Positions 20,870 to 54,009 of a stretch of DNA of 55,575 bases are shown here, piece by piece (position 1 is the first letter of the stretch; each line of letters starts with the position of its first letter). The stretch is taken from NCBI GenBank assembly GCA_023270185.1, contig JAGLCY010000029.1, forward strand, positions 1 to 55,575, read 5' to 3'. Source of the stretch: Candidatus Krumholzibacteriia bacterium. Its GTDB lineage: Bacteria > Krumholzibacteriota > Krumholzibacteriia > LZORAL124-64-63. The position numbers and the translations under genes were made by a program. The notes under the pieces were generated by a model. The model had not been told where the DNA came from. It was given only the letters and a program-made list of their open reading frames with translations, and ran no database searches.

Positions 20870-20955
20870 GCCCGGGTGGTGGAATTGGTAGACACGCTAT
20901 CTTGAGGGGGTAGTGGCCACAAACCGTGCGGGTTCGAATCCCGCCCCGGGCACCA
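20870..20955 (+). tRNA. tRNA-Leu (anticodon GAG), CCA encoded
   Basis: The acceptor stem is GCCCGGG/CCCGGGC and the D-arm is GTGGAATTGGTAGACAC. The anticodon stem CTATC/GGTAG carries the loop TT-GAG-GG. A long class-II variable arm and the T-arm GGGTTCGAATCCC are present, with a 3' ACCA. Confidence 0.9.
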
Positions 20956-20996: not shown

Positions 20997-21026
20997 TTGA
21001 CACATTTTTAACTGAGTAGAAATAAT
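20997..21026 (+). promoter_or_regulatory. Candidate sigma70 promoter for the lysine-repeat gene
   Basis: TTGACA (20997-21002), 18-nt spacer, AATAAT (21021-21026), in a very AT-rich stretch directly after the terminator. Confidence 0.4.
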
Positions 21027-21157
21027 GGCTCTACTTCAGCTGGCAGCCTGACGCCAGTCGGAGATGATAACAACATCCGAGACAGGAGGTCTTGCTCGGA
21101 TCCCACTGGGTGCGGGGTCCGGGTGGACGCAGGAACTCTCAACAAGTGAGGTCCGGT

Positions 21158-21604
21158 ATGGAGGAGAGGGAAGCCTTGATGGCCGCTGGCGCGACCAAAA
21201 AGAAGGCCAAGAAGAAGAAGGCTGCCAAGAAAAAGGTCACCAAGAAAAAGGCGACCAAGAAGAAGGCGACCAAGAAGAAGGCCACCAAGAAAAAGGTGAC
21301 CAAGAAAAAGGCCGCCAAGAAAAAGGTGACCAAGAAGAAGGCCACCAAGAAGAAGGCCGCCAAGAAAAAGGTGACCAAGAAGAAGGCCACCAAGAAGAAG
21401 GCGACCAAGAAGAAGGCCACCAAGAAGAAGGCGACCAAGAAGAAGGCCACCAAGAAGAAGGCGACCAAGAAGAAGGCCGCCAAGAAAAAGGTGACCAAGA
21501 AGAAGGCCACCAAGAAAAAGGCGACCAAGAAGAAGGCTGCCAAGAAAAAGGTGACCAAGAAAAAGGCCACCAAGAAGAAGGTAGCCAGGAAAAAGAGGAA
21601 GTAA
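21158..21604 (+). CDS. Histone-H1-like, extremely lysine-rich repeat protein (148 aa; probable nucleoid/nucleic-acid-binding protein)
   Basis: ATG at 21158 has a GAGG RBS 6 nt upstream. The product is MEEREALMAAGAT followed by 27 pentapeptide units K-K-K-[A/V]-[T/A]. Of the three forward frames, only this one puts G/C at nearly every third codon position (aag/gcc/acc), matching the genome's codon style. It has its own promoter and terminator. Confidence 0.75.
   Translation: MEEREALMAAGATKKKAKKKKAAKKKVTKKKATKKKATKKKATKKKVTKKKAAKKKVTKKKATKKKAAKKKVTKKKATKKKATKKKATKKKATKKKATKKKATKKKAAKKKVTKKKATKKKATKKKAAKKKVTKKKATKKKVARKKRK
21197..21601 (+). repeat. 15-nt in-frame tandem repeat (27 units) encoding KKK[AV][TA]
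   Basis: The unit aagaa(g/a)aaggc(c/g)acc is reiterated with few substitutions. 27 x 15 = 405 nt exactly fills 21197-21601. Confidence 0.9.
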
Positions 21605-21648
21605 GTGGCTGAATGAACGTTTCAGGCCCTGCAAGGGGACTGGAATCG

Positions 21649-21680
21649 AAAACCGCCGGGGTTTGCCCCGGCGGTTTTTT
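21649..21680. terminator. Bidirectional rho-independent terminator between convergent genes
   Basis: AAAACCGCCGGGG / CCCCGGCGGTTTT with loop TTTG. It is flanked by A-run and T-run, so it reads as a hairpin plus U-tract on both strands. Confidence 0.85.
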
Positions 21681-21728
21681 CATGCATCCAGGTCCGGATG
21701 CCATCTGCCCTGTCGGTGTGTTACGGGA

Positions 21729-22646
21729 TCAGTTGTTCTTCTCCGCCATGTGGGAAGCCCGGACTTCAGGGGGAACCACATCCAGATAAACGGTCAACCC
21801 CAGGCTGAAGGTCACGAAGTTGACCATGTTGGAATATCCAAGTTCTTCAACATCATAGGCGAAGTTGGTCAGGTCGACCTGGCCGGCGATCTGGAAATTG
21901 TCGAAAAGTTCGAAGTTCAATCCGAAGTTGCCTTCGAGATAAAGTCCGGTGACATCCGACAGTTCGCTGTAACGGTTGATGATTCCCCCCAATCCGAAGC
22001 CCAGTCGGGGAACGATTCCGAAAAAGGTGGCTGGGGTGGCGTCGTACATGAGGGCCAGTCCGCCCTTGAACATCTTGTAGCCGTCGTCCTTGTCGACCTC
22101 GATCCGTTCGGATTTGTCGGGGAAATTTTCCGGGTCCGACGTGAAGCGCATGGTTGTGACCGCCTGACCCGTGGCGTAGGTGCCCAGGAGGTCCATATGG
22201 AAGTCGTCGGAAATGTAGATGCCGATCCGGGCGCCGTAGGCCGGGCCTTCCTTAATCTCCTTGTGCGCGCCGGTGTAGTGAACGGGATCCTGGGATACGA
22301 GGAGGACTTCACCATCGTAACCCATGATGTCTCCGGCACCGCTGGCTAAGATCGTGCGGTCGGGAAGATCCATATTCTCAAGATACTTGGCACCGGAAAA
22401 TTGGCCGCCGAATACGGTGATGGCGTAACCCTTGACGGTGTAGTCGTCGTAGATCAGGGGTTCTTCCGGGATGGGGGCCGGGTCCTCCAGGGGGGGGGCC
22501 TCGGCGGGGGTGGAGTTCTCCTGGTCGGTCTGTTCGGCGGGGGCCGGAACAACAGGATCATCCGTTTCTTCCTGGGCCATCAGGGCAGGTCCGGAAAGGA
22601 GCAGGCCCATAGCAATCAGCAAGGACACCAAAGTTCTGAACTTCAT
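21729..22646 (-). CDS. Outer-membrane beta-barrel protein (unknown function) with Pro/Glu-rich N-terminal linker
   Basis: A signal peptide (MKFRTLVSLLIAMGLLLSGPALMAQE) and an acidic Pro-rich linker come first. Amphipathic strands follow (GARIGIYISDDFHMDLLGTY, GLYLEGNFGLNFELF, VNFVTFSLGLTVYL). Confidence 0.6.
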   Translation of the reverse strand: MKFRTLVSLLIAMGLLLSGPALMAQEETDDPVVPAPAEQTDQENSTPAEAPPLEDPAPIPEEPLIYDDYTVKGYAITVFGGQFSGAKYLENMDLPDRTILASGAGDIMGYDGEVLLVSQDPVHYTGAHKEIKEGPAYGARIGIYISDDFHMDLLGTYATGQAVTTMRFTSDPENFPDKSERIEVDKDDGYKMFKGGLALMYDATPATFFGIVPRLGFGLGGIINRYSELSDVTGLYLEGNFGLNFELFDNFQIAGQVDLTNFAYDVEELGYSNMVNFVTFSLGLTVYLDVVPPEVRASHMAEKNN

Positions 22647-40270: not shown

Positions 40271-40633
40271 ATGCCCGAGAAGCATTCCCTTGGACGATGG
40301 GGTGAGGATGTTGCCTGTCGGTTCCTCGAAATGTGTGGCTATCAATGTCTGGACCGGAGGTTCCGTCGCCCTGGTGGTGAAATCGATCTGATTCTCGCGC
40401 GGGACTTGATGGTGGTATTTGTCGAAGTCAAGACACGGGGGCCCCGGTGCCAGGTTCCTCCCGAGGTGTGGGTGACCCCTCGCCAGCGGTCCCGGTTGCG
40501 ACGTATGGCCAGAATCTGGCTGGCCGATCACCATGACCCCGCCTGGATCGGCTATCGTTTCGACGTGGTTGCCATATCATATGGTGGGAGCGATGGCGGA
40601 TCGGAACTCCGTCACCTGGTCGGAGTTGGTTGA
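40271..40633 (+). CDS. yraN: YraN-family (UPF0102) endonuclease-like protein
   Basis: ATG at 40271 gives LGRWGEDVACRFLEMCGYQCLDRRFRRPGGEIDLILARD..VVFVEVKTR, a PD-(D/E)xK-like core. It follows rnhB, as in many genomes. Confidence 0.88.
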   Translation: MPEKHSLGRWGEDVACRFLEMCGYQCLDRRFRRPGGEIDLILARDLMVVFVEVKTRGPRCQVPPEVWVTPRQRSRLRRMARIWLADHHDPAWIGYRFDVVAISYGGSDGGSELRHLVGVG

Positions 40634-40866
40634 TCCCTGCATCGGCTGTGGACTGTTGCGGGCGGGTTGGCTCCTCCTTACCTTCATTCGATTCGGAAAC
40701 GCCCAGGTTTGGGCCTGCAACCCGAGATACCCCACCCACACCAACCGCCTCCGGTATTTTCGGGTCGAAACCTCGACCGCGCGGTTGCGTAGGAAAGTCA
40801 ACATACGTTGGCAACCCTGCCTCGGAGGAAAATCCGGGGAGACACTTCGCTTCCATTAGGACGGAC

Positions 40867-43800
40867 ATGCTCGCAGACCGCACAGTTCTGGCCCGACATG
40901 AGGCTTTCGATGGCTCCTTTTTCCGCTCGAGCCGTCTTTTGGCCCCTCGCGCTGCCTGGATCTGTCGGTTGGGATCCCCACGGAGCATCGGGTTCGCCTT
41001 ATTCGTGCTGATGCTGGTGGGGATCCTGCCGGCGGTTGGGGCTCCCATCCTGCTGGATAATGACGGTAACGGGGTGGAAGACCTCCTCGACGAGTGGCTG
41101 GCCGGTCGCGCGGGGTGGGAGGACCTGCGTCAAACGGCGTTGGCAGCCACCTTGCGAATGGATACCGACAAGGCCGCCGGTTCCATCCCACCCGATGATT
41201 TTTCCCCGAATGCAAAACCCGCGGAAGGTGGCTGGTTGGCCGGCAACCTGCGCCTGCTTTGTCTGGGATCCACAGCCGCGGGTCTGGCCCGGGCGACGGA
41301 GGCGGGGTCACGCGCCGGCCAATGCCGGGTCCTTCACTCACTGGACCGTTTCGGTGGGGTAACCGTCCTGGATCTTGATGAAGCGGGCTTGCGCGCTTTC
41401 CTCACCAACCGACCATTCGGCCGTTTTCTGCTGGACCGGGACGGTGTGCCTGCCCTGGCGGACAGTCGCGGCCTGGCCGGGGCAGCCCGGTTGGAAGCCG
41501 GCAGATGGCGGCTGGGGGATGATTGGTCCTCCACCGTGGCCATCCTGGATTCGGGTTGCGACACGGCCCATGGTGATCTGGGGGATTTCCAGGACGACGA
41601 TATTGACGGTCCGGCTCCCGCCGTCGGCGACGAGGGAGATTGGTTCCCGGCCGACAACGGCTGGCCCTTGTTCGAGGGATACAAGGTGGTCGGCTGGCAC
41701 GACGTGACCGACGATTTTCCCCTTGCCGCGGGGCCCTGGGATTATCATCACCACGGCACGGCCCTGGCTTCCGTGGTCGCCGGGAGCGGTTCGGTCGATC
41801 CCGATTACAGGGGCATGTCGCCGGGGGCCCGATTGACCGTGGTGAAGTTCTACGATTTTGACCAGACCTGGCATGCCTGGGCCGGAGATTTCCTGGCCGC
41901 CTGCGCGTGGACACTCGAAAACCGGGACGTCTACAGGATCCGCACCGTTCTTATGGCGGTGAACTGGGATGTGGATGCCGGGATCAGTTCGGCCATGGCC
42001 GATTTTGTTTCCGCTGGTCTGCTTCCGGTGGCGGCTGTCGGGAACCACGGCATCGAATCGGTGGGCCCAGGTTTTCCGGCTTCCCTTCCCGACGTGTTGA
42101 CAGTCGGCAGTGTGGACGGGTCGGGCGCCTTGGCTGCCTACAGTGGACGCGGGCTGACCGTGGAGGACAAACCCGACCTGCTTGCACCGGGTGGCGGATT
42201 GCTCATCGGCGGCGGACGGATCATCGCCGCGGACAACGAACCTGACGACACCTACAGCGGGCGCTTCGGCACCAGCCTGTCCGCCGCCCACGTGGCCGGC
42301 GCGGTCCATCTGCTGGACGAGGCCCTGCTTGAGAACGGAATCATCCTGCCCCCGGACCGAACCTCGGTCCTGACCAGGTCGGCCCTGCTGAAACTTTCCG
42401 CCGCGGCGGTGGTGCGGGCAGAGAATTCCGAGGGCACAGGCCACGAAACCATGATCTTCCCGGCTGGTCCGGACGCCCTCCGGGGCTGGGGGTTGCTGAG
42501 GGTCGACACCGCGGTCGAGGCTGCGCTGCGGCCGCTCATGCCGGGCCAGGACCAGATTGATACCTTGACCGCGGATTGGGACAAGCCGGTGGTTGCCCGC
42601 AGGCTGATCACCAATCCTCAGATCCGCTATTTGATCGAGGCGGTTCCTTCCAGTGGACTAGACATCGTTCTGGAAGTGGTCGACCCGCGCTGGCTGGACG
42701 ACCCGGCCACATACGACCGTGTGCGGCGCCGGGATGCCAATGGACCGGGAGTTTCGGAATTCACTTATCTGAGGCCTGATCACCACAGTTGGTTATCGCT
42801 GGTCGTCAAACGCAAGACCGGCTCGGGGACCGTTTCCCTGCGAATCCGGGAAGCCGATTCCTTCCCGGACCAGGGAATATTCTCGGTGCTGCCGGGTCTC
42901 GTCACCGGTGCTCCCAATGCCGGCAATGTTACTGGTTTCAACGATGTTTCCCTTGTGATTTCCTCCAGGGTAACCGTCGACCTGGGAGCCAGGTCCCTGA
43001 ATGTCATGAACACCGCCGGCGTTTTTCGCCCGGGTTGGCCCGTTTTCGTGTTTCCCCACAGCTCCAGCCAGGGCGGGCTTTCCCAACCTCTGGTCTGGGA
43101 CATGGATGGGATTCCCGGTGACGAGATAGTGGTGGCATCCGATTTCGGATCCGTTTACTTCTTCAACGGATCCGGTGTTCATGATGAGGTTGCGCTTACC
43201 CTGAACCGGTCCCTCACCACGCCGGTTGGTGTTGTCACCGCCGGAGGGGACCACCGTGTCGCCGTAGTGGACAAACTTGGCACGGTCAGAATCTGGTCCC
43301 ACGGCCCCGTGCTGGAAGGCCAGACGGATCTGGGCCACAATCTTCCCCTGGCGCCAGCCGCCGGCCGGTTGGTGTCCGGTTCCGGGGAATCGCTCGTTGT
43401 GGCTTTTGCGGATGGACATGTGGCTGCCCTGGGTGAAGATCTTTCCCCCTTGCCGGGATGGCCGCGGGATCTCGGCGTTGCCCTGGGCGTGGCGCCGGTG
43501 ATGTGTGACCTGGACGACGACGGGATTCATGAAATCGTGCTGCCCGCCCTTGATACCCTGACCGGGCGGCTGACCATGCGGGTCCTGGATGCCCAGGGGC
43601 AGTCGCTTTTCGGGAATGGGGTGGTGGTTCCGGCTCCGGAGGGTGGTGGCTGGCTGGCTCTTTCCCCGGCCGTGGTGGCGGGTGGTTACGGAACCGGTGA
43701 CCTGCGCGTCACTCTCACCGGCCTGGCGGATAACGGCCTGTTCGGGGATCAGGACACATGGGTTCTGGGCCAAGGGGCACTGCTTGCCAGTGGTGTTCCA

Positions 43801-44550
43801 TCTGTCGCGACGCGACCCGGATTCCGGGTAAAGGCTTCCACCTCCCAAGGTATTCTCACCCTTGATCATGTCCTTTTGCCGGCTCCGTTGGCCTGGGACT
43901 TTCTCGGAGGCAGTGGAACCGAAGTCAATTCCCTGGTGAGCGTGAACTGGTCCGAAGTGCTCATCGGGCTGACATCACTGCCCGGAGCCTGCACCAGTTG
44001 GTTCGGGCCCGGCGATGAAACCCAACCCCTCGTCAAACGGCAGCCCCTGACCCTTGGGGGCAGGGCGGACGAAATGTTCGCCAGCGCGGGCACGCTTCTG
44101 ATTCCCGGGCAGGGGGATGTTTCCCTGCGTGTGGATGTTCTTGAGCACAGGGTGGGCGTCCTGCCAATCCGGAAACTCACGAATTCAGTGACCCCCTGGG
44201 TTGCCGCCCGCTGTGACGGTCGTAACAGTGGGGCTTTCCCCCTCCGCCAACTCGTGTCCTCCGTTCCGGAACGGGTTCCCGGAGGTGGGCGCCTGATTGT
44301 CTATCCCAATCCCGGAGGTGGTCAGTTCAATTTCAGGGTATCCGGTATCATGGTTTCTTCAGGGCTCAGCTTGGAAATCTTCGACTTGCGTGGCCACCGA
44401 GTCCGGGTGCTGGATTTCGGGGCCGAACCGGGTTTGATCCGCTGGGACGGAACCGGTCGGGACGGCAGGCCTTTGGCCGCCGGCACGTATCTGGCAGTCA
44501 CCAGGGGCGGGGGCAAATCCCTGGTGGCCAGGGTCGTTCTCACTCGTTGA
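40867..44550 (+). CDS. Secreted multidomain subtilase: S8 peptidase + FG-GAP/VCBS-like repeat region + T9SS/FlgD-Ig-type C-terminal domain (start uncertain)
   Basis: The S8 triad motifs are VAILDSGCD (Asp codon 41548-41550), HHHGTALAS (His 41752-41754) and GTSLSAAHVAG (Ser 42274-42276). A hydrophobic leader (IGFALFVLMLVGILPAVGAP) and a Ca-binding-like DNDGNGVEDLLD are present. FG-GAP-like segments are DMDGIPGDEIVVASDFGSVYFF and CDLDDDGIHEIVLP. The C-terminus is LIVYPNPGGGQFNFRV...LEIFDLRGHRVRVL...IRWDGTGRDGRPLAAGTYLAV. Confidence 0.8.
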   Translation: MLADRTVLARHEAFDGSFFRSSRLLAPRAAWICRLGSPRSIGFALFVLMLVGILPAVGAPILLDNDGNGVEDLLDEWLAGRAGWEDLRQTALAATLRMDTDKAAGSIPPDDFSPNAKPAEGGWLAGNLRLLCLGSTAAGLARATEAGSRAGQCRVLHSLDRFGGVTVLDLDEAGLRAFLTNRPFGRFLLDRDGVPALADSRGLAGAARLEAGRWRLGDDWSSTVAILDSGCDTAHGDLGDFQDDDIDGPAPAVGDEGDWFPADNGWPLFEGYKVVGWHDVTDDFPLAAGPWDYHHHGTALASVVAGSGSVDPDYRGMSPGARLTVVKFYDFDQTWHAWAGDFLAACAWTLENRDVYRIRTVLMAVNWDVDAGISSAMADFVSAGLLPVAAVGNHGIESVGPGFPASLPDVLTVGSVDGSGALAAYSGRGLTVEDKPDLLAPGGGLLIGGGRIIAADNEPDDTYSGRFGTSLSAAHVAGAVHLLDEALLENGIILPPDRTSVLTRSALLKLSAAAVVRAENSEGTGHETMIFPAGPDALRGWGLLRVDTAVEAALRPLMPGQDQIDTLTADWDKPVVARRLITNPQIRYLIEAVPSSGLDIVLEVVDPRWLDDPATYDRVRRRDANGPGVSEFTYLRPDHHSWLSLVVKRKTGSGTVSLRIREADSFPDQGIFSVLPGLVTGAPNAGNVTGFNDVSLVISSRVTVDLGARSLNVMNTAGVFRPGWPVFVFPHSSSQGGLSQPLVWDMDGIPGDEIVVASDFGSVYFFNGSGVHDEVALTLNRSLTTPVGVVTAGGDHRVAVVDKLGTVRIWSHGPVLEGQTDLGHNLPLAPAAGRLVSGSGESLVVAFADGHVAALGEDLSPLPGWPRDLGVALGVAPVMCDLDDDGIHEIVLPALDTLTGRLTMRVLDAQGQSLFGNGVVVPAPEGGGWLALSPAVVAGGYGTGDLRVTLTGLADNGLFGDQDTWVLGQGALLASGVPSVATRPGFRVKASTSQGILTLDHVLLPAPLAWDFLGGSGTEVNSLVSVNWSEVLIGLTSLPGACTSWFGPGDETQPLVKRQPLTLGGRADEMFASAGTLLIPGQGDVSLRVDVLEHRVGVLPIRKLTNSVTPWVAARCDGRNSGAFPLRQLVSSVPERVPGGGRLIVYPNPGGGQFNFRVSGIMVSSGLSLEIFDLRGHRVRVLDFGAEPGLIRWDGTGRDGRPLAAGTYLAVTRGGGKSLVARVVLTR

Positions 44551-44607
44551 CCAGCCCTTTCTAATTTCTCCCTCCCTTCCTGCGGGTATCCGTGATAGAT
44601 TTCCGCC

Positions 44608-47600
44608 ATGGAAAAAGACAACCTGAGCGAACCAAATTACTGGAAGATTCTCAGCGCTGCCGAGGAAACCCTGGCAAAGGGTGATTTCGCCGGAAGCGAA
44701 TATCTTTTTCACGATGCTTCCGGACGCCGTGACCGCTCGCCAGGGCGAGTGTTTTTTTCCGAGAAACTGACCGACGGCCTCAAGGGACTGCTCAACAAAA
44801 CAACACATGGGGATGAACGGGAATCCGATTCCCCCGGTCGATGGTCCAGGCGTACGTTCGACTTCAGAAGCCGCTTCCTTGCCCTGGGTGAAAAAACCGT
44901 TCGCGAAGGTGTCCGGGTGGCGCAATTGCGCCCCGAGGATGATCCCGCCACAAATCAGCCGGTGCTTGAGGCGGCGCTTTTCCTGGTTGCGCGAAGCAGT
45001 ATTTTCCAGGAAGAACCCTCATCCGCCGTCCCGTTGCTCAAGGGGTTGTTCCGGACCGCCTGCCGTACGGCGCGGCCATTCGATTTCAACCTGGTGCGGC
45101 ACGACCTCCCATTGACCGAAGAGGATCGACTCTGGCTCGCCGGCAAGGGCGGTGAGCTGTTCGATGTCTTTATCGAGCAGGAGGTGCTGGTGCCCGGTTC
45201 CGCCGAAGCGGGGGAATGGGCCCGGGTGGTTCTGCAACTGCTGGAACCCCGGTATTTCGGGTCGGCCGGTCGTCTGGAAGAGGAGAGGAGTTGGCTCGAG
45301 GCCGTAACGGCGGATCGTCTGTTGGGCAGGGCCGCCGCCAGCGTCGAACTCTACCGTGCCTATCTCGGGGTCGGATCCATTTCCGGGGCTCGAAACGATG
45401 AAGCCCGGGTGCGCCTGTTGGAACTCATGGGCAACACCGACGCGGAACATTTCCCGGTGCCCCGTTATGACGAAGCTGTCTCCGCCCTGTCTCCGGACGG
45501 ACTTTCCCCCGGAAGTTCCCTTGTATCCCGCTGGGAATCCGCCCGTGCCTGCATCGATTATCGGCGTCCCTTGTCTGGAACAAATGAGGACCATTCCGGC
45601 GCCTGGGCTTCGCTGGCTCTTGAGCCTGATGGTTGTGTCACGATTGTTTTCTGGTGGGACGATGAGCCGAGAGATGTGGCCTATTGGCGCCAAGGTGAGA
45701 ACACCGGTCCGCTGGATGAATTTCTCGCTCCCTGCCGGGGGCGTCTGGTGGCCTACGATGAAGCCGTTAGTCCTTTTGTCTCGACCGCATGGAGGGAAGC
45801 GCCCGCATCCTGGACCGTGAGGGAGTTCATGGGGGCGGTCATGGAAAGCCGCCTTCCGGAACACGGACTTGATCAGGAAACCCTGCTCGGTCTGTGTCTT
45901 GCGGAGACGGGACCTTGGCGGACGGGGTGGAACCCGGCCGCCGGACATCCGGAACTGGAACCCCCGCGCAGTTCCTCTCTGCTGGAGACATGGGAAGAGG
46001 GCCCCGCGGCTGGTGCCCTTGTGGCAGGCCTGTCCTGGTTGGCCGTTCGCAACCGGGTGGCCTCGGGAGATCCTGCCCTGCGCGCGGGCATTGGTGAACT
46101 GGCGCGTCGCGGTGATCCGGCCTCAATGTTTATCTACGGTTTCATCACCATGGATTCCCATGGCGACTCCGGGCTCGACGCCGCCTTCCAGCCCTGGACC
46201 CTGCCTTTGCTGTGGACGAGGCCCGATCCCTTCGGCTGGACAACCTCCGGTGTTTCGGGGCGCGGAGAAATATCAAAATCTTCGGATCACGGCATCCGGC
46301 TGGATCTTGGCCGGAATGATCTGGCCATCGTTTCCACGGGGGAACCGACTTCGGTTTTGGCCGCTTGGGGCGATGGAAGCCAGAGGTGGCGGGTGGTGCT
46401 GGACCGTCTGGACCGATTGGAGTCCCTGGCCCAGGTTGCACAGGGAGTCATCGGGCCGGTGACCCTGATTCCACCGGCGGGGACAGTCCATTCCCTGGGC
46501 GCGGCCCTGGAATTCCTCGAATCGCTCCTGACGGATGTTCGTCCCGAGCAGGATGCCCTGCTGCCCCTCTTCCATTGGTTGCGGCTGGTCGAGACCCACA
46601 ACGGAGACCTCCTGGACTTTCGACAGGTCAGACCACGACCCTCGGGCCTCTTTCCCTTGTACGACCGTTACGCCGAGGCGATCGGATTTCTGAACCGGGA
46701 AGAACCGCGTCTGGATCCCGAGGGTCACCTGGATTCCTGGGCGGGTCAATTCAGTCAAAGGGTGCGCAAGGCGGGCCTGGTGGCCGGACCGGTTGATCAC
46801 CTGGCGGTGACGCCGGATAGGCTCGACAGCCTGTGGGGAGTGTTCGAGGGCAGTGATGTTTCCTGGGTGTTCCTCGACAGTGCCGCTATCCACTGGACCC
46901 TGCTGCGGAGGGGCGGTGTCGGTATCCAGGAAATCCATGCCCTCCTGCACAGTCGCGGGCGCCGTCATTTATCCCTGCTGACGGGTGCGGTTTGGCTCCC
47001 GTCGGAACTGGAGGCCCTGCTGGGTTCCTGGCTGGGGGTCTTCGGAAATCCCTATTGCCTGTCCCTGACCGATGGCCGCCCGCCCACATTGCGCCTGGCG
47101 GACAAGGGTATCCAACCGGAAGCCCGGGTTCTGGTCTCCGAAGCGCTGGCCAGCCAGGCGACCTGGTTGGACCGGGCCTTTGTTGAATCCGGTGGAGGTT
47201 TTATTCAGTTACCCGTCGAAGGTCGGGCCGCGGCCTTTTGGAATTCCGTCAGCAATGGTGAGGTCGCCCTGGCGGGGAGGAACTGGAATTTTGTCCCACC
47301 GGTAAATGATGAACCCCACGAGAGTCCCCGCGGTGGCGGCATGCTGGCGGTGCCTTCCCTGGCCAGTCTGGAAATCGAGGCCATGCCGGTGGCGCGTTCG
47401 GACACCCGCGCTGATTGGGCCAAGGCCGATAGCGAACGGAGCACTTTTTTCTCCTGGCGCAGGCAAGTCTGCTCCCTTGAGATAGCCGCCTATCTGGCCG
47501 GACCGTGGGAAACCGTCGCCATCCTGGATACGCGCTGGTGGAGGCTCCTTTTGAAGGGGATTCCCTCCGGGTCGGTGACCGAAACGGTTCAATCCTCACC

Positions 47601-50600
47601 GGGCGCCGAAGCTGTCCGATGGGCAACCGACCAGACAGGTCGGGTCATGGATCTTCCGGATTCCGATCCTCGCGGACGTTATCCCGTGGATGGAAGGATT
47701 CTGTCCCTGGTCAACGATTGGTTGGCGACCCGACCAGTTGATTCTCCACTTGTCAAGCCCGGGGCACGCTCCGGGGAGAGTCCGGTCATGCCGGCCAAGG
47801 GCGTGAACCTTTTATTGGGAGATGAGTCCGCCACCTTGCTTGAAATCATGAACCGGGTTGCCGAAGCCTGGGAGCGGGGGCGCGTGGAGGACTGGATTCT
47901 GTTGGTCGCCGACGCCGCCCCTGGCGGAGCCGCGGACCTTGTGGCCGGCGCCGGGATGGCGGGGATTTCCATATGGGCCGGAGGTTCGGACGGTCAGGTC
48001 CCGTCACCCTTGATCTGGGTTGAACCGGAGGATTTCGGCGATCCTGGATTGGGGGCTTTCCTGAAGGTTCATCCACCCACCATCGTGGTGGCGGGTGATG
48101 TTGCCGACTGGATGCCAGGTCCCGACAGAGAGGCCCAGGAAACTGCTCTTGCCCTTCGGATGATCCTGGATTGCGGTGCGGAAACCGTCCTGCTGCATAC
48201 GTCGGCGCTTACCGATTCCCGGGTCCGTTTCCTGGTCTCGGCTTGTGGGGCCAACCTGATGGCCGACGGCATGGAAAATTCCACGGCTTCCGCCCTGCCG
48301 ACGGTTCCCACCATTGAAGGGCTTTGCCTGGACTGCGGACAGGCGAGGGACGCGACGGAAGTGGTCCGGCGGCTTGGCGCCCTTTTTCCCCGGCTGCGTG
48401 ACCTGTCGTCGCCCAGGGTGGACGGGCAGGACGAACCTGACGCTTTACTGCCTCCACCACCAGGTCGCCAGTTGTTGTCTTTGGCTTGGCTGGGTAATCT
48501 GGCGGGTGTCGCGGCAGCCGACATCGCCGAAGGAGTTCGTCTGTTGCGCTGGGCCGCCCGACTCGCGGGTGATTCCCTGTCATCGGCCGGGTCGGAAAGG
48601 TCGGTTGATCCTCGCCAGAGCAAAGGTCATACCCTGGTTATTCCCCGGCGATTCGTGGACATGGAGAAAGCCCTCGAACAACTGGAGGGGAATCTGGGGG
48701 TGATGCTGCCCATGTGGTTGGGTGGCGGTGCCCCAGGCAATCTCAACTGGGTCGATCTGGAGTATCCCCCTGCCAGGATCGACGATACCGAGCTCAACCT
48801 GTTGGACTGTTTCCTGATGTGGAACGGGTCACGGGATGAGTCCGGAACCGATGAGTCCCCCGAGGCCCAATCCGGTTTGATCTATTGCTGTCCGCGGGGT
48901 CTGCTTCATTCGACCCAGCGTCTGGTGGGATGCGGTCTTCCTTTCGGTGAGGTCATGCAGGACCTGGCCAAACGATTGAGATTGTTCCGCTCGCGGATCG
49001 AGGAAATCATGGCGGGGGCCCTGGAAACGGGGGAGGGTTTCCTTGTCGAAACGGGACTTACGGATCTGCGCCCCGAAGAAAAATCATTCCTGGGACTCGG
49101 CGCCGCCCTCGGCTTCTGGCGTTGGATCGGTCCACCTTGTCATGGCGCCATCCATTTGGTGGATCTGTTGACTTTGGCAGACAGCAGGACGGTCCGTGAC
49201 CGGTCCCACGGGTGGGAACTGGTGCGCTCTGAAGCGGTTGGCCGCTATCCTGGATTCGGGCCGGGAAACACCGGTACGCGGGCGCTGGAACCCTCCATTG
49301 CGGTATCGGGTCGGGGATTGCGCGGTTTCCGCTCGCTGATGGCCGGGGGCGCAGAAAAGCGGGACGATCTTGACTCCGTGGTGGCAAGGGTCGCCGATCT
49401 GGCTCAAGGTGTGGACAGCGCCTCCCTTCTCGTTCTCAAGGGCGTGTTCGGGTCAGGACGCCACGAGGCCCTCGGGCGTGGATTGCTGAAGGCCGGTCAG
49501 GCGGCCGGGAACATTCCGGAGATCACTGTTTACTGTCCGGATGAAGCAGTGGCGGCCATGGTTTGTCGCGAATTTTTACGTCTCGGTTTGTCGGGCCCGC
49601 TGGATGTCCGGGTGTCTCACGCCGACCCTGCCCGGTCCGAAACCCCATCAGCAAGGACCTCTCTGGCCGACCCCTCGTCCGCTCTGGTTGTCATGTGTGA
49701 AGCACAGCGGTTTGACCCCGAAACACGTTATCGGATCGCTCAGACCGGACGTGGACGACGGCTGCTCATGACCGTGGATCCGGTGGCTACTCTCGAACCC
49801 TGGGAACATCTCTTCCTTACCACGCCGCGCACCAGTGATATCGTTGATCTGCCCGGTCAGCGCAGGTCGGCCAGGAAACTGTGGTCGGAAGTCCGCAGAC
49901 TGGTCCCTTCCGAATACCAGAATGGAAGTGTCCAGCGCCGGGACAAGGGAGTTCTGATCTCGGACTATGCCGCCAACCTGGACCAGTGTCTGTCACGGGT
50001 GGTTCATGAACACCAAGCCGGTAAACTCATGGCTCCGTTGCGGATGACCGCCCCCATGCCAGGGGATCTGGAGTATCTTGGTTCGTCCATCAGGGATCGC
50101 GGCTGGCTGGCTGTTTTGGAAACCCGGTTGGAAAGTCTGTTCTTGCCCGGGCCCCGGGAGTTTCTGGCCGCGGCTACCGACCACCTCGCGTTGGGAGGCC
50201 ATATGGATGAAGTCCTGGGCCTGCCGGCCGGATCCGATGAGAAGCCTGATCTGTTGATTCCCCGTTTGCTGGGGCCGGGCGGAGTGGCGGCCTGGAAGGA
50301 TTGGGTGGCCGGACGGGATTTTTCGGCTGACATCACCCTGAACGAATTCGCGGCATTGATGGAGCCGACCAATTGGGCCAATACTTTCCTGGCTCGTCCC
50401 GCGGCCAGGACACGGATTCTGCGTTTTCTTGAACAGTATGGCGAGGAACCATTGTCCGTTTTGAGAACGGTGCCCCTGTGGGAGGCCTGGTGGTATATGA
50501 TGTTGGATGATGTGACAGCCAAGGGTCCCCGTTATCGTCGGCCCCTGGCGGTCCTGACTTCCGCCGCCAGACCGCTTGGGTGCGCCATGCCCGGGATGGC

Positions 50601-50721
50601 GTACCTGTGCCTGGGGACCGAGCCTGTCGGGCAGCATTATGAATCCCTGGTCAGGGTCACCGACAGTCTCCTGGTCCTGTACCAGGAGAAGTCCCCCTTG
50701 CCTTCGGAAGCGCCCGAATAA
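44608..50721 (+). CDS. Giant (2,037 aa) cytoplasmic protein of unknown function; the C-terminal ~450 aa resemble a degenerate SF1 helicase/P-loop core
   Basis: A 6,114-nt uninterrupted ORF with the same G/C-ending codon style as its neighbours. No signal peptide or TM is seen. No family motif is recognised in the first ~1,600 aa. The C-terminus carries ordered but mutated Walker A / motif II / III / V-VI-like strings (see findings). Confidence 0.85.
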   Translation: MEKDNLSEPNYWKILSAAEETLAKGDFAGSEYLFHDASGRRDRSPGRVFFSEKLTDGLKGLLNKTTHGDERESDSPGRWSRRTFDFRSRFLALGEKTVREGVRVAQLRPEDDPATNQPVLEAALFLVARSSIFQEEPSSAVPLLKGLFRTACRTARPFDFNLVRHDLPLTEEDRLWLAGKGGELFDVFIEQEVLVPGSAEAGEWARVVLQLLEPRYFGSAGRLEEERSWLEAVTADRLLGRAAASVELYRAYLGVGSISGARNDEARVRLLELMGNTDAEHFPVPRYDEAVSALSPDGLSPGSSLVSRWESARACIDYRRPLSGTNEDHSGAWASLALEPDGCVTIVFWWDDEPRDVAYWRQGENTGPLDEFLAPCRGRLVAYDEAVSPFVSTAWREAPASWTVREFMGAVMESRLPEHGLDQETLLGLCLAETGPWRTGWNPAAGHPELEPPRSSSLLETWEEGPAAGALVAGLSWLAVRNRVASGDPALRAGIGELARRGDPASMFIYGFITMDSHGDSGLDAAFQPWTLPLLWTRPDPFGWTTSGVSGRGEISKSSDHGIRLDLGRNDLAIVSTGEPTSVLAAWGDGSQRWRVVLDRLDRLESLAQVAQGVIGPVTLIPPAGTVHSLGAALEFLESLLTDVRPEQDALLPLFHWLRLVETHNGDLLDFRQVRPRPSGLFPLYDRYAEAIGFLNREEPRLDPEGHLDSWAGQFSQRVRKAGLVAGPVDHLAVTPDRLDSLWGVFEGSDVSWVFLDSAAIHWTLLRRGGVGIQEIHALLHSRGRRHLSLLTGAVWLPSELEALLGSWLGVFGNPYCLSLTDGRPPTLRLADKGIQPEARVLVSEALASQATWLDRAFVESGGGFIQLPVEGRAAAFWNSVSNGEVALAGRNWNFVPPVNDEPHESPRGGGMLAVPSLASLEIEAMPVARSDTRADWAKADSERSTFFSWRRQVCSLEIAAYLAGPWETVAILDTRWWRLLLKGIPSGSVTETVQSSPGAEAVRWATDQTGRVMDLPDSDPRGRYPVDGRILSLVNDWLATRPVDSPLVKPGARSGESPVMPAKGVNLLLGDESATLLEIMNRVAEAWERGRVEDWILLVADAAPGGAADLVAGAGMAGISIWAGGSDGQVPSPLIWVEPEDFGDPGLGAFLKVHPPTIVVAGDVADWMPGPDREAQETALALRMILDCGAETVLLHTSALTDSRVRFLVSACGANLMADGMENSTASALPTVPTIEGLCLDCGQARDATEVVRRLGALFPRLRDLSSPRVDGQDEPDALLPPPPGRQLLSLAWLGNLAGVAAADIAEGVRLLRWAARLAGDSLSSAGSERSVDPRQSKGHTLVIPRRFVDMEKALEQLEGNLGVMLPMWLGGGAPGNLNWVDLEYPPARIDDTELNLLDCFLMWNGSRDESGTDESPEAQSGLIYCCPRGLLHSTQRLVGCGLPFGEVMQDLAKRLRLFRSRIEEIMAGALETGEGFLVETGLTDLRPEEKSFLGLGAALGFWRWIGPPCHGAIHLVDLLTLADSRTVRDRSHGWELVRSEAVGRYPGFGPGNTGTRALEPSIAVSGRGLRGFRSLMAGGAEKRDDLDSVVARVADLAQGVDSASLLVLKGVFGSGRHEALGRGLLKAGQAAGNIPEITVYCPDEAVAAMVCREFLRLGLSGPLDVRVSHADPARSETPSARTSLADPSSALVVMCEAQRFDPETRYRIAQTGRGRRLLMTVDPVATLEPWEHLFLTTPRTSDIVDLPGQRRSARKLWSEVRRLVPSEYQNGSVQRRDKGVLISDYAANLDQCLSRVVHEHQAGKLMAPLRMTAPMPGDLEYLGSSIRDRGWLAVLETRLESLFLPGPREFLAAATDHLALGGHMDEVLGLPAGSDEKPDLLIPRLLGPGGVAAWKDWVAGRDFSADITLNEFAALMEPTNWANTFLARPAARTRILRFLEQYGEEPLSVLRTVPLWEAWWYMMLDDVTAKGPRYRRPLAVLTSAARPLGCAMPGMAYLCLGTEPVGQHYESLVRVTDSLLVLYQEKSPLPSEAPE

Positions 50722-50826: not shown

Positions 50827-52227
50827 ATGGACCTGCCCTTCGAACCCTACCGTATCAAGGTCGTCGAGAAGATCCAGAGGGTCAGCCGCGAAGAGCGGGT
50901 TAAACATTTGCGCGCCGCCGGGTACAACCTTTTCAAGATCCCGGCCGAAGCCATCTACGTCGATCTGTTGACCGACAGCGGGACCGGCGCCATGAGCGAT
51001 CTGCAATGGGCCGCGCTCATGAGTGGCGACGAAGCGTACGCCTGCAGTAAATCATTCGCCGAATTCGAGAGCACCATCAAGGACATCTACGGTTACAAGC
51101 ATGTTATTCCCACCCACCAGGGTCGGGCGGCCGAGGGCATGCTTTTTACCGTGACACTCAAACCCGGTGACGTTGTGCCCAACAACATCCACTTCGACAC
51201 CACCCGGGCGAACGTGGAACACATCGGGGCCATCGCCCTGGACTGCATCGGCGCCGAGGGGCTGGATCCCGCAACCGAGGGTCCATTCAAGGGGAACATG
51301 TCGCTGGATAATTTGCGGGCCGCTTTTGATAAATACGGGACACCCCGCATTCCCTTCGTGATGCTGACGATCACCAACAACAGTGGTGGTGGCCAACCGG
51401 TTTCCATGGCCAACATGAAAGCTGTTTCCGCCTTCTGCCGCGAAGTTGGTGTGCCTCTTATCCTGGACGCCTGCCGTTTTGCCGAGAACGCCTGGTTCAT
51501 CCAGCAACGGGAAGAGGGTTACGCCGACAAGGAGATCAAGGATATCTGCCGGGAAATGTTCGCCCTGGCGCAGGGTTGCACCATGAGCGCCAAGAAGGAC
51601 GGCCTGGTCAACATCGGCGGTTTCCTGTGCCTCGACGACGACGCCTGGGCGCAGGACGTCACCAACCTGCTCATCCTGCGGGAGGGTTTCCCTACTTATG
51701 GAGGGCTGGCCGGACGCGATCTGGCGGCCATCGCACAGGGGCTCCGAGAGGTGCTGGACCCTGATTACCTGGCCTATCGCATCGGACAGGTTGCCCGACT
51801 GGGCAGGCGTCTCGACGAACTTGGTGTGCCGTACCTGCGGCCCACCGGGGGTCACGCCGTCTACCTGGATGCCCGCAAGGCTCTTCCACACATTCCGCAA
51901 TCACAGTTTCCGGCCCAGGTATTCACAGCCGCCCTTTATCTCGAAGGCGGCGTCAGGGGCGTCGAGATAGGCAGCCTCATGTTCGAGCACAAGGATCCTG
52001 ATACGGGGGAGATGGTCAGTCCGGCGATGGAACTGGTCCGGCTCGCGATCCCTCGCCGGGTCTACACACATACCCAACTGGATTACGTTGCTGAATCATG
52101 CGCGCGGGTCATGGAGATCGGCGAAAGGCTTCGTGGGTTGAAAATCACCTGGGAGCCTCCGGCTCTGCGGCATTTCACCGCTTCGCTGGAACCTGTCGGC
52201 GGCGGCAAGATGATTGCGAAAGCTTGA
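50827..52227 (+). CDS. Beta-eliminating lyase (tryptophanase / tyrosine phenol-lyase family, PLP-dependent)
   Basis: ATG at 50827 is 9 nt after AAGGAG. The product has FEPYRIKVVE, DLLTDSGTGAMS and THQGRAAE. The PLP-lysine region is SAKKDGLVNIGGF, followed by AVYLDA. I cannot tell Trp-specific from Tyr-specific by eye. Confidence 0.88.
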   Translation: MDLPFEPYRIKVVEKIQRVSREERVKHLRAAGYNLFKIPAEAIYVDLLTDSGTGAMSDLQWAALMSGDEAYACSKSFAEFESTIKDIYGYKHVIPTHQGRAAEGMLFTVTLKPGDVVPNNIHFDTTRANVEHIGAIALDCIGAEGLDPATEGPFKGNMSLDNLRAAFDKYGTPRIPFVMLTITNNSGGGQPVSMANMKAVSAFCREVGVPLILDACRFAENAWFIQQREEGYADKEIKDICREMFALAQGCTMSAKKDGLVNIGGFLCLDDDAWAQDVTNLLILREGFPTYGGLAGRDLAAIAQGLREVLDPDYLAYRIGQVARLGRRLDELGVPYLRPTGGHAVYLDARKALPHIPQSQFPAQVFTAALYLEGGVRGVEIGSLMFEHKDPDTGEMVSPAMELVRLAIPRRVYTHTQLDYVAESCARVMEIGERLRGLKITWEPPALRHFTASLEPVGGGKMIAKA

Positions 52228-52247
52228 TCGCGGAAGGTGGATCCGGA

Positions 52248-52913
52248 ATGACTGTCCCTCCGCTTCAGGTTTCCTGCGTGGGAATGCCGGACGACCTGGT
52301 CGTTGCGTTGGCGCCCTTGGTCGAAGTGGCGGCCAAGGCCCTTGACATGGGCCGTGATGTATCGGGTGTCCGGATCTGCGGTGATGACATGCCGGGAGAT
52401 GACGGCCCCTGGTATCGTCTCCAGCCGGGTTCCCATGCCGGTGAATTGCCGGAGCTGATCCTGTTCTGTCATGGGGGGTGTTTCGGGCGCCGGGATCGGG
52501 CGGGGAACTCGTTGAATCCACCACCGGCCATCTGGGAACAGTCGCCAGCGCCCGAGGTGGAGCTGTCCGAAGGTATGATGGGGTTTTCGGCGGAAAGATC
52601 GGCGATCTTTCTGCATCACCACCTGTTGACCGCGCGGGATCTGGTCCGTGGAGACGTGGTGGGACGGAATCTTCCCGCGGGTCTGACAGAAGCCTTTACC
52701 GAGTCCTGGGCCGTTGTCGTGGATGGACGACTGGTCCGACAGGGCTTGCCCGGTTTTCCCCTGGCCGAAAGGCGGGGCCGGTTCGCCCAGGTGTTTTCTC
52801 CCGCGGGTATTCTTTTGCCGGACCATTGGCAGGTATTTGAGTCTCTCTGGGATGGAGCCCTGTCGAGCCAACAGGATGTCCTGGACGTAGTCAAAAAGTT
52901 GCCGGGCCTTTGA
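52248..52913 (+). CDS. Hypothetical protein (221 aa), translationally close-coupled to the lyase
   Basis: ATG at 52248 is 21 nt after the lyase stop, with GGAAGGTGGA upstream. The + frame has genome-typical codons, whereas the antisense ORF 52083..52871 translates to R/G/P/Q-rich junk. No recognisable motif. Confidence 0.55.
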   Translation: MTVPPLQVSCVGMPDDLVVALAPLVEVAAKALDMGRDVSGVRICGDDMPGDDGPWYRLQPGSHAGELPELILFCHGGCFGRRDRAGNSLNPPPAIWEQSPAPEVELSEGMMGFSAERSAIFLHHHLLTARDLVRGDVVGRNLPAGLTEAFTESWAVVVDGRLVRQGLPGFPLAERRGRFAQVFSPAGILLPDHWQVFESLWDGALSSQQDVLDVVKKLPGL

Positions 52914-53059: not shown

Positions 53060-53118
53060 CCGGACCTAGTCTGTTCCCACCTGCAAGGCCAGGAGCATAC
53101 CTTTTGGGAGGTTGGTTC

Positions 53119-54009
53119 ATGTTCGGTGTTTCTTCCGCGCGTCGCTGGGTTTCGGTTATGCTGCTCGGTCTGCTGGCCATGACTTTCGTCGTCCTTTCCG
53201 GTTGCGGAGAAAAGGAAGCAGTGGACCCCTACGTCTATGACTCCCTCCGCCGGGTCACCCGTGGCGACACCCTCAGCACAAATTTCCTTTTCGAGATCGA
53301 TGCTCCCGAGTTCGATTATGTCCGTGGCAACACCGCCCTGGTGCGTGACGGGAACCTCCTTGAGTTCCTGGTCGGCGAGGACCTCGAACACAATTACAGG
53401 AATTTGTCCGGAACCCTTCTGGGTGTGAGAAAAACATTCTCCCCGGCCCCGACACATCTGGTGATCCAGCGGATCAAGCGCGGTGGCGTTGTTGAAGCCG
53501 ACAGTCTGCCGGTGCCGCCCCACTACACGCTGCCTACGCTGCTGCGTGCCGGAGCCGTGGATCTCGAGACCCCGGGCGCCCCGCTGCCCGATCTCGGTTG
53601 GAAGACCAAAGACCTGAAGGAAGCCCGCGCCACCTATCTGCCCGAGGAAGAGGGCGACGACCTGAAGCCCATCCAGACCGGCATCGAGACTTTCGTGTAC
53701 ATGCCACGCCACGACCTGGCTGATTCGGTGAAGGCCAATCCTTCCGCCGAGGATTTCGCCTGGTACGCCGTGTTCGCCGAGTCGTCGGTTGAAATTACCG
53801 AACTGACCGACGGGGCGGAATGGATGTTGCATCTCCTGTTGGCCAAGGATCTGCCGCTCATCGGGTCGTTCTCGATGCTCTCCATCGAGGATGAGTACAA
53901 GAAGCGCAAGATCGAGCACGAAACCCTCGGTCACGTTGTTGGAACCATGAAGATCAACTGGTTCAAGTTCGGCAATACCTTCGTTGAAGGGGCCGAACGG
54001 GATATCTGA
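53119..54009 (+). CDS. Lipoprotein of unknown function
   Basis: ATG at 53119 is 7 nt after GGGAGG. The signal peptide has the lipobox MLLGLLAMTFVVLSGC. No recognisable domain. Confidence 0.65.
   Translation: MFGVSSARRWVSVMLLGLLAMTFVVLSGCGEKEAVDPYVYDSLRRVTRGDTLSTNFLFEIDAPEFDYVRGNTALVRDGNLLEFLVGEDLEHNYRNLSGTLLGVRKTFSPAPTHLVIQRIKRGGVVEADSLPVPPHYTLPTLLRAGAVDLETPGAPLPDLGWKTKDLKEARATYLPEEEGDDLKPIQTGIETFVYMPRHDLADSVKANPSAEDFAWYAVFAESSVEITELTDGAEWMLHLLLAKDLPLIGSFSMLSIEDEYKKRKIEHETLGHVVGTMKINWFKFGNTFVEGAERDI

Follow-up and report, generated by a model that had tools for sequence, protein, structure and literature searches.

A giant gene in a Krumholzibacteriia contig

The stretch of DNA analyzed here (hereafter the window) comprises the 55,575 nucleotides (nt) of contig JAGLCY010000029.1 in the Candidatus Krumholzibacteriia bacterium assembly GCA_023270185.1. 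Its longest open reading frame (ORF) encodes a giant protein of 2,037 amino acids (aa) which, on the evidence of predicted structures, we tentatively interpret as a lineage-restricted pseudohelicase. A preliminary description of the window, made from the sequence alone, had singled out this 6.1-kb ORF as the longest of all, and we confirm it at the following exact coordinates.

44608..50721, + strand: complete giant ORF, ATG start, 2,037 codons plus stop; homologues mostly full length, ratio of non-synonymous to synonymous substitution rates (dN/dS) 0.16

The second-longest ORF of the window (1,306 codons) is an S8 subtilase lying upstream, whose stop at 44550 leaves a 57-nt gap before the giant ORF. 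A terminator-like site was looked for in this gap (44551-44607) and none was found. Codon usage of the giant ORF correlates with that of 10 other window genes at r = 0.89, as against 0.24-0.26 for the two off-frames, and its GC content at third codon positions (0.67) falls inside the range of its neighbors. Together with the synteny kept in 6/6 homologue contigs inspected, this agrees with the earlier view of the gene as native.

The composition is, as had been noted, rich in Leu (12.9%), Ala (10.3%), Gly (9.5%), Arg (8.5%) and Trp (2.9%), and all segments of the protein are acidic (isoelectric points 4.3-5.8, net charge -69). The Kyte-Doolittle mean over 19 residues reaches at most 1.53, and with this heuristic no transmembrane segment, signal peptide or hydrophobic N-terminus was detected. 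The giant protein is probably cytoplasmic, as first proposed.

The gene is real and evolves under purifying selection

Ninety homologues, on independent contigs and at 33-90% identity, were retrieved from 5.8 billion protein clusters. Nearly all are 1,960-2,290 aa long and collinear from end to end (a few are partial), and full-length collinear copies occur on contigs of 0.68-4.7 Mb. None of the 90 has a recorded Pfam domain, and every named one is called “hypothetical”. Compared with an 80%-identical orthologue, overall dN/dS was 0.16 at a dS of 0.69 (Nei-Gojobori) and 0.11-0.24 in each of six segments of the giant ORF; the lowest values, 0.09-0.18, belong to the C-terminal module described below. 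The giant gene is real and under purifying selection.

These comparative data already refute the idea that the giant ORF is an assembly or annotation artefact, i.e., a chimera or a run-through of several genes, to which we give practically no credence. Collinear full-length homologues are found on dozens of independent contigs, including the longest just mentioned, every segment is under purifying selection, and structure models are confident over the segment borders. In its favor stand only two database members, P0119 and P0136, that resemble frame-shifted translations, and these are exceptions. The preliminary description had allowed for a chimera; we found no sign of one, given the full-length homologues and the selection acting in every segment. 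As for P0119 and P0136 themselves, they are frame-shifted or run-through-like gene calls on very GC-rich contigs, with patchy matches, and P0119 has a UPF0102-like N-terminus.

Sequence searches return no characterized family

At the sequence level the giant protein is an orphan. Pfam and NCBIfam gave zero families at E <= 1 for the whole protein, including its last 430 residues, and Pfam gave zero families at E <= 1 for four divergent homologues; no PADLOC model matched the giant protein or three homologues. When phmmer and a 39-sequence profile were run against all Protein Data Bank (PDB) sequences, only chance matches were obtained (TAL effectors, E ~0.1; H2A.Z, E 0.03), and the profile matched no helicase at E < 1. 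A profile of aa 1-1150, run exhaustively by HMMER against 1.84 billion representative proteins, retrieved 84 proteins at E <= 1e-3, all of them family members or fragments. Word-indexed searches, with either the full alignment or that of the C-terminal module, also found nothing beyond family members and fragments. Six segments compared by hhalign with Escherichia coli UvrD, Rep, RecB and RecD gave marginal signals, in the C-terminal module only. Literature searches, by locus tag and by the phylum combined with “helicase”, returned nothing on the giant protein.

Hence no characterized family is matched, over the full length or otherwise, even by profiles. The usual giant-protein classes (RHS/YD, RTX, Ig/cadherin adhesins, polyketide and non-ribosomal peptide synthetases, polymorphic toxins) had been discounted by eye, and rightly so, as there is no Pfam or NCBIfam signature, no repeat and no secretion signal to suggest any of them. 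The statement that no domain is recognizable over the first ~1,600 residues, by contrast, stands at the sequence level but fails in predicted structures, which are helicase-like from ~aa 566 and UvrD-like at the C-terminus.

Predicted structure and domain layout

Two overlapping AlphaFold2 (AF2) models were built from the 39-sequence alignment and compared with the PDB by Foldseek. The first tile (aa 1-1150) had a predicted local distance difference test score (pLDDT) of 84.5 and a predicted template modeling score (pTM) of 0.73; the second (aa 881-2037) had a pLDDT of 81.0 and a pTM of 0.78. A Foldseek comparison with viral structures gave nothing at E <= 1e-3. As modeled, the giant protein has no unknown fold but derives, at great divergence, from known ones, and is laid out as follows (SF1, helicase superfamily 1).

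44608..45582, + strand: aa 1-325, N-terminal all-alpha solenoid (TPR/ARM-like); AF2 helices over 11-319, pLDDT mostly ~90
45583..46302, + strand: aa 326-565, Trp/Arg-rich middle domain; AF2 three-stranded sheet (332-361), then helices to ~525
46303..47742, + strand: aa 566-1045, first helicase-like alpha/beta region; Foldseek matches of tile 1-1150, AF2 alternating strands and helices from 572
46570..46620, + strand: aa 655-671, FHWLRLVETHNGDLLDF, the best-conserved signature of the family, in 51 sequences including the most divergent members
47743..48327, + strand: aa 1046-1240, Rossmann-like beta-alpha-beta domain, in both AF2 tiles (stretch ~1065-1220)
48325..48339, + strand: aa 1240-1244, CLDCG, remnant of a CxxC...CxxC zinc ribbon, from the alignment with longer relatives
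48328..49359, + strand: aa 1241-1584, mixed alpha/beta region of AF2 tile 881-2037 (mixed ~1285-1545, low-confidence linker ~1551-1584)
49360..50718, + strand: aa 1585-2037, UvrD/Rep/PcrA-like SF1 module; Foldseek, AF2 tile 881-2037
49441..49464, + strand: aa 1612-1619, Walker-A-like loop GVFGSGRH; Arg replaces Lys, Ser/Thr lost
49687..49713, + strand: aa 1694-1702, motif II-like VVMCEAQRF; canonically DExQ, in the family [C/L/A/V/P]-E-x-Q-R
50602..50703, + strand: aa 1999-2032, motif V/VI-like YLCLGTEP..QHY...RVTD.LLVLYQE.SPLP; strands and a conserved C-terminal SPL tail

A C-terminal SF1-like module with a remodeled active site

The best Foldseek match of the C-terminal tile was UvrD (2is4, E 1.1e-9, prob 1.0), and further matches included Rep, PcrA, AddA, AdnAB, RecD, Dda, SLFN11 and nsp13. 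Overall, 50 PDB structures matched at E <= 1e-3, nearly all of them helicases and mostly SF1. In the predicted structure, the C-terminal module consists of two RecA-like lobes with the topology of UvrD, Rep and PcrA, with a helical insertion in the second lobe and no long 1B insertion. The assignment of its UvrD-like SF1 fold, made on this predicted structure, is well supported.

The motif-like stretches of this module follow one another as in SF1A helicases (I, Ia, II, III, IV, V, VI). Besides motifs II and V/VI, listed above, they read as follows.

Motif I: LLVLKGVFGSGRHEAL (canonical GSGKT)
Motif Ia: ITVYCPDEAVAAM
Motif III: LMTVDP..EPWEHLF
Motif IV: L.GQRRSARKLW

In hhalign alignments with E. 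coli UvrD, Rep and RecD, the stretches for Walker A and for motifs III and IV fell into the expected register, TVDP..EPWE pairing with GDDDQSIYGWRGA and L..QRRS with L..NYRS. The pairwise scores are weak: E 0.009-0.025 to UvrD (around motif IV) and 9e-4 to RecD (around Walker A).

The catalytic Walker residues are replaced. Across 39 sequences, the Walker A loop reads G-x-x-G-[STCA]-G-R-x where GxxxxGK[ST] would be canonical, with G1612, G1615, G1617 and R1618 invariant, and the residue after R1618 is H, L, G, Q or M, never a conserved Ser/Thr. Divergent members have at the position of the Walker A Lys either Lys (P0095 and P0097 only), Arg, or neither (P0113). The Walker B Asp position is occupied by C, L, A, V or P, with Glu1698 and Gln1700 mostly kept, and no Q-motif Gln is conserved upstream of the loop. 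Further downstream, C2001, G2003, E2005, H2010, S2029 and P2030 are invariant in the 39 sequences. The C-terminal module probably descends from SF1A helicases, and the Lys of the two divergent members fits descent from an active, canonical helicase. We did not file it as a UvrD-family enzyme because it has neither the defining motifs nor a match to the hidden Markov models (HMMs) of the family (Pfam UvrD-helicase, AAA_19 and UvrD_C).

A central helicase-like region and its HNGDL signature

For the first tile, Foldseek retrieved SETX (8fth, E 2.6e-5), Aquarius, Cas3, RecQL5 and HrpA, as well as CasDinG (8s36_M, 7xf0 and 8v44; prob 1.0, E 9e-5 to 1e-3, TM-score to target 0.32-0.44). The residue range of the match was taken from the alternation of strands and helices in the AF2 model. 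A strand-loop-helix at aa 572-588 (LAIVSTGEPTSVLAAWG) has the loop STGEPTS (LAIVSTGEPTS, 572-582), and FLDSAA (within WVFLDSAAIHW, 753-763) stands where DExH would be. Walker A and B are absent from this region, which contains no GK[ST] anywhere and no Walker A Lys. A helicase-like fold, possibly with RecA-like lobes of the SF2 DinG/XPD or SF1B Upf1 type, is moderately supported for the central region.

When the two helicase-like regions were aligned by hhalign, they proved dissimilar (E 0.37), by which we rejected an internal duplication. Tandem Repeats Finder gave only a 23-nt chance match in the ORF DNA, and the absence of internal repeats reported earlier is upheld on both counts.

The signature at aa 655-671 follows the pattern FHW.RL.(E/A)THNGDL.D. 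Among 51 sequences, G666, D667 and L668 are invariant, and H656, W657, H664, N665 and D670 have at most three exceptions. A metallophosphoesterase-like reading of “GDLLD” was considered and rejected, as AF2 puts the motif in a loop between two helices.

Elsewhere in the chain, the N-terminus, which had been suspected to be helical, is all-helical in the model and holds the conserved motifs YW, SPGRVF and PLTEEDRLW. Its Foldseek matches to TPR/ARM proteins are weak (E 0.016-0.12), and Pfam gives no TPR match. The middle domain (5.4% Trp) has (near-)invariant W333, W349, R355, D356, W360, R379, G474, G494, G502, W530 and R538, and aa 1241-1584 include the conserved G1300, W1315, D1400, G1431, R1438, G1498 and W1504. 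The Rossmann-like domain is the fastest-evolving segment (dN/dS 0.17-0.34). At the CLDCG point, long-form relatives (2,065-2,290 aa; P0080, P0086, P0093-P0116 and P0170) have a zinc ribbon and an insertion of ~170-200 aa, while in the window's clade CLDCG is all that is left of the ribbon.

A conserved promoter-like motif abuts the start codon

If the mRNA is leaderless, its promoter should include an extended -10 element that ends 6 nt upstream of the ATG; a candidate lies at this very position.

44593..44601, + strand: extended -10-like motif TGATAGATT, ending 6 nt before the ATG; candidate leaderless-mRNA promoter

Even in relatives with saturation at synonymous sites, the 21 nt directly preceding the start codon (CCGTGATAGATTTCCGCC-ATG) are kept, in contrast to the remainder of the spacer, which diverges; in the window, this 21-mer occurs once at up to 5 mismatches. 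In the window's clade, the motif TGnTA(G/A/T)nTT lies 6-7 nt ahead of the ATG, and TG.TA...T separated from the ATG by 5-8 nt was found at 26 of 51 GTDB loci, all of this clade. A second clade, mostly long-form and with proteins starting M[NS]YW, has instead a GGAGG or GAAGG Shine-Dalgarno sequence 6-10 nt before the ATG. This pattern suggests, from sequence conservation, that the giant gene has its own promoter and a leaderless mRNA. The spacing on which co-transcription with the S8 gene had been proposed, i.e., a 57-nt gap with no terminator, is as described, but co-transcription itself is weakened by the conserved extended -10-like motif next to the start codon.

At 44734-44751, 127 nt inside the ORF, a terminator-like hairpin precedes a T7 run. 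It was set aside as probably a chance occurrence: it encodes the conserved peptide RSPGRVFF, relatives have preserved neither its T-run nor its stem, and shuffled sequences contain as many sites of this kind.

Known range of the family and its syntenic block

The distribution of the family was evaluated through a scan of 185,579 GTDB species genomes seeded with two motifs, [ET][TS]HNGDL[LM]D and PL[TS][EA]EDRL[WH][LM]. This yielded 64 loci, all in metagenome-assembled genomes (MAGs), of which 23 are labeled Krumholzibacteri-, 18 “uncultured Fibrobacteraceae”, 22 unclassified and 1 Gemmatimonadales (L022, P0043). The Fibrobacteraceae-labeled loci are:

L028, L033, L035, L046, L047, L051, L054, L056, L057
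L061-L064, L066, L068, L069, L072, L073

The sole such contig inspected, L051 (also listed as L006), shows the gene order of the Krumholzibacteriia contigs, because of which we read the Fibrobacteraceae labels as imprecise. The named sources of the homologues are Candidatus Krumholzibacteriota or Krumholzibacteriia. Going by named members, Krumholzibacteriota, an uncultured phylum, is the only one in which the family has so far been found.

In all six relatives examined (33-56% identity), the giant gene lies in one shared block. The order is ffh, rpsP, a KH-domain gene, rimM, trmD, rplS, rnhB, UPF0102, S8 peptidase and giant gene, continuing with tryptophanase (tnaA), two Pfam-less genes, and then PFK and RarA on the other strand. 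Gene order is identical in relatives at 56%, 45%, 40% and 33% identity. The S8 gene is directly upstream in 4/6 relatives and in the window itself; in the other two (L003 and L005), the pair is parted by leucyl-tRNA synthetase (LeuRS) or by STAS/SpoIIE/HDOD/LeuRS genes. Orthologues therefore do not always adjoin S8, a regularity that the preliminary description had proposed to look for. Since the whole ffh...PFK block (25 kb) is syntenic and genes intervene in two relatives, we read the adjacency as general synteny without a specific link. A functional link to the S8 protease was set aside on the strength of these intervening genes and of the promoter-like motif of the giant gene.

Several neighboring features were recorded in passing. 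The S8 ORF (40630-44550) probably starts at the ATG at 40867 (Met80), giving ~1,228 aa, similar to its 1,210-1,244-aa relatives; a hydrophobic signal-like stretch follows this probable start, and a FlgD_ig/type IX secretion system (T9SS)-type sorting-domain signal lies at the C-terminus, below the Pfam cut-off. The Pfam-less genes at 52098-52913 and 53104-54009 are conserved downstream in 6/6 relatives inspected; in L005, which has no tryptophanase, they directly follow the giant gene, and the second opens with a lipoprotein-like signal (...LSGCGEKE). A 731-aa ORF at 146-2341 has no Pfam family at E <= 1. The single tRNA-Leu(GAG), at 20870-20955, is followed by the kilobase of lowest GC in the window (21001-22000; GC 0.52, strong AT skew of +0.41), possibly a small inserted element.

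A proposed non-motor pseudohelicase and its alternatives

The explanation we prefer, and hold with some reserve, is that the giant protein is a lineage-restricted, non-motor pseudohelicase scaffold, i.e., a “dead helicase”. It is favored because the Walker A Lys is changed to Arg as in PriA, and because the Mg ligands are lost too. From the models and motifs we infer loss of ATPase activity, nucleic-acid binding and a scaffold role. The N-terminal alpha-solenoid would probably be a protein-binding arm, and the helicase folds would act as non-translocating modules that bind and scaffold nucleic acid and partner proteins, much as in RecC, AddB and Deinococcus PriA. The Gly-rich loop with its Arg may still bind nucleotide or phosphate, without driving an ATP motor. 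The gene itself is best explained as a vertically inherited, lineage-restricted core gene.

Several observations weigh against this interpretation. The sequence-profile links to helicases are not significant by themselves, and for the first helicase-like region the Foldseek E-values are moderate (2.6e-5 to 1e-3) and global TM-scores low. Tight conservation is seen in the Gly-rich loop, in the motif III-, V- and VI-like stretches and at Arg1618, Glu1698 and Gln1700, which could equally signal a working, unorthodox nucleotide site. The uniformly acidic segments lend no positive support to nucleic-acid binding, and the genomic context offers no functional clue.

The main rival takes up this conservation and holds that the protein is active as an SF1 ATPase or translocase of an unorthodox kind, a motor in DNA repair, transcription or RNA processing. 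Here, the Arg P-loop with Glu1698 and Gln1700 would still support hydrolysis, and the first, dead module would be an accessory, as in Brr2 or AdnAB. We consider such a motor somewhat unlikely. The C-terminal module is the most constrained part of the protein and matches active UvrD strongly in fold; the Gly residues and Arg of its loop are invariant, with E1698 and Q1700 nearly so, and in two divergent members the Walker A residue is Lys. On the other hand, a Walker A Lys-to-Arg change abolishes ATPase activity in tested helicases (PMC4504706). Neither of the two Mg ligands, Ser/Thr next to the Lys position and the Walker B Asp, is conserved, nor is the Q-motif Gln upstream, and some members lose even the Arg (GTGA in P0113) or have the Gly replaced (P0100 and P0115).

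Alternatively, the helicase folds could be a mere chassis with no nucleic-acid role, making the giant protein a protein scaffold or chaperone, possibly tied to the S8 protease, to envelope biogenesis or to a lineage-specific process, or else an enzyme using the H-N-G-D-L-x-D site. This we judge unlikely. It would account for the N-terminal alpha-solenoid, for the acidity of all segments and for the many Trp, Arg, His and Asp residues that are invariant and belong to no helicase motif, HNGDL being the best conserved of all; it could also point to the S8 gene directly upstream in the window and in 4/6 relatives. That adjacency, however, is broken in L003 and L005 by LeuRS and other genes, is hardly informative within a 25-kb block that is syntenic throughout, and is set against a promoter-like motif suggesting separate transcription. 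Moreover, the S8 protease is secreted (signal peptide, T9SS-like tail), whereas the giant protein has no export signal, and HNGD matches no known catalytic motif.

Less probable again, we think, is that two remodeled helicase modules, the solenoid and the H-N-G-D-L-x-D site together form an essential, lineage-defining machine of a new kind. Such a machine could be an ATP-independent or nucleotide-sensing platform replacing a canonical repair or replication-restart factor, or it could carry out new HNGD chemistry; in both cases it would amount to something beyond a passive helicase relic.

Many defense systems use large SF1/SF2 helicase-like proteins, and ZorD, GajB, Cas3 and CasDinG are among the weaker Foldseek matches, but a mobile or anti-phage defense component is very improbable: no PADLOC model matches the giant protein or three relatives, every relative inspected has the locus at a fixed place among housekeeping genes, composition and codon usage are native, and each contig has a single such gene, unaccompanied by a nuclease or methylase partner.

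Comparison with known helicases and pseudohelicases

Relative to the SF1A enzymes UvrD, Rep and PcrA, the C-terminal ~450 aa of the giant protein are predicted to have the same two-lobed RecA-like fold and the same motif order. They differ in having no HMM match, no Walker A Lys, no Ser/Thr after it and no Walker B Asp. Only ~50 aa separate the Ia-like and II-like stretches here, hence the absence of a long 1B insertion, and the module ends a 2,037-aa protein, whereas a UvrD-type helicase is an enzyme of ~650-720 aa.

RecC (of RecBCD) and AddB (of AddAB) are dead SF1-like folds that serve as DNA-guiding scaffolds. They share with PriA and, as modeled, with the giant protein a helicase fold in which catalytic residues are replaced. 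The PriA of Deinococcus-Thermus provides exactly the same change, a natural Walker A Lys-to-Arg replacement: it has no ATPase or unwinding activity and has kept DNA and DnaB binding, and in E. coli PriA the engineered K230R kills ATPase activity (PMC4504706). Beyond the generic fold, however, no homology of the giant protein to PriA, RecC or AddB was detected, and RecC and AddB are not among the top Foldseek matches. The giant protein also has no recognized nuclease or nuclease-like motif, and no active motor partner in its chain or adjoining it.

The layout suggested by the model, an extended helical arm at the N-terminus and then a RecA-like core, recurs in the large SF1B helicases Aquarius and Senataxin/Sen1, the best whole-tile Foldseek matches for aa 1-1150 (8fth, E 2.6e-5; 4pj3, E 4e-3). 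These are, however, eukaryotic active ATPases with canonical motifs, and they show no sequence similarity and a global TM-score of 0.16-0.20. Brr2, a weak Foldseek match, likewise has two helicase-like modules per chain, at least one of them non-catalytic, but its tandem cassettes, the second of them inactive, are duplicated SF2 Ski2-like units, whereas the two modules of the giant protein are unlike each other and both look degenerate. CasDinG, an SF2 helicase of type IV CRISPR systems, gave the best per-target overlap for the central region (TM-score to target 0.44, prob 1.0); the giant gene, by contrast, has no CRISPR context, Walker A/B or PADLOC match. We found no described counterpart for the architecture as a whole, which runs from a solenoid through a dead helicase-like region to a degenerate UvrD-like module, some clades having a zinc ribbon and an additional domain between the last two.

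Implications for the family and the phylum

The giant family illustrates how structure prediction can place a complete sequence orphan. The result bears on no long-standing open question. The motifs [ET][TS]HNGDL[LM]D and PL[TS][EA]EDRL[WH][LM] are a candidate marker for Krumholzibacteriota contigs. In this uncultured phylum, the giant gene takes up ~6 kb of every genome where it is found, and it is strongly constrained. If the pseudohelicase reading is correct, the family is undescribed, with no Pfam or NCBIfam model, and offers a natural Lys-to-Arg P-loop in which residual function of such sites could be tested. It would also be a large, phylum-wide addition to the few natural pseudohelicases.

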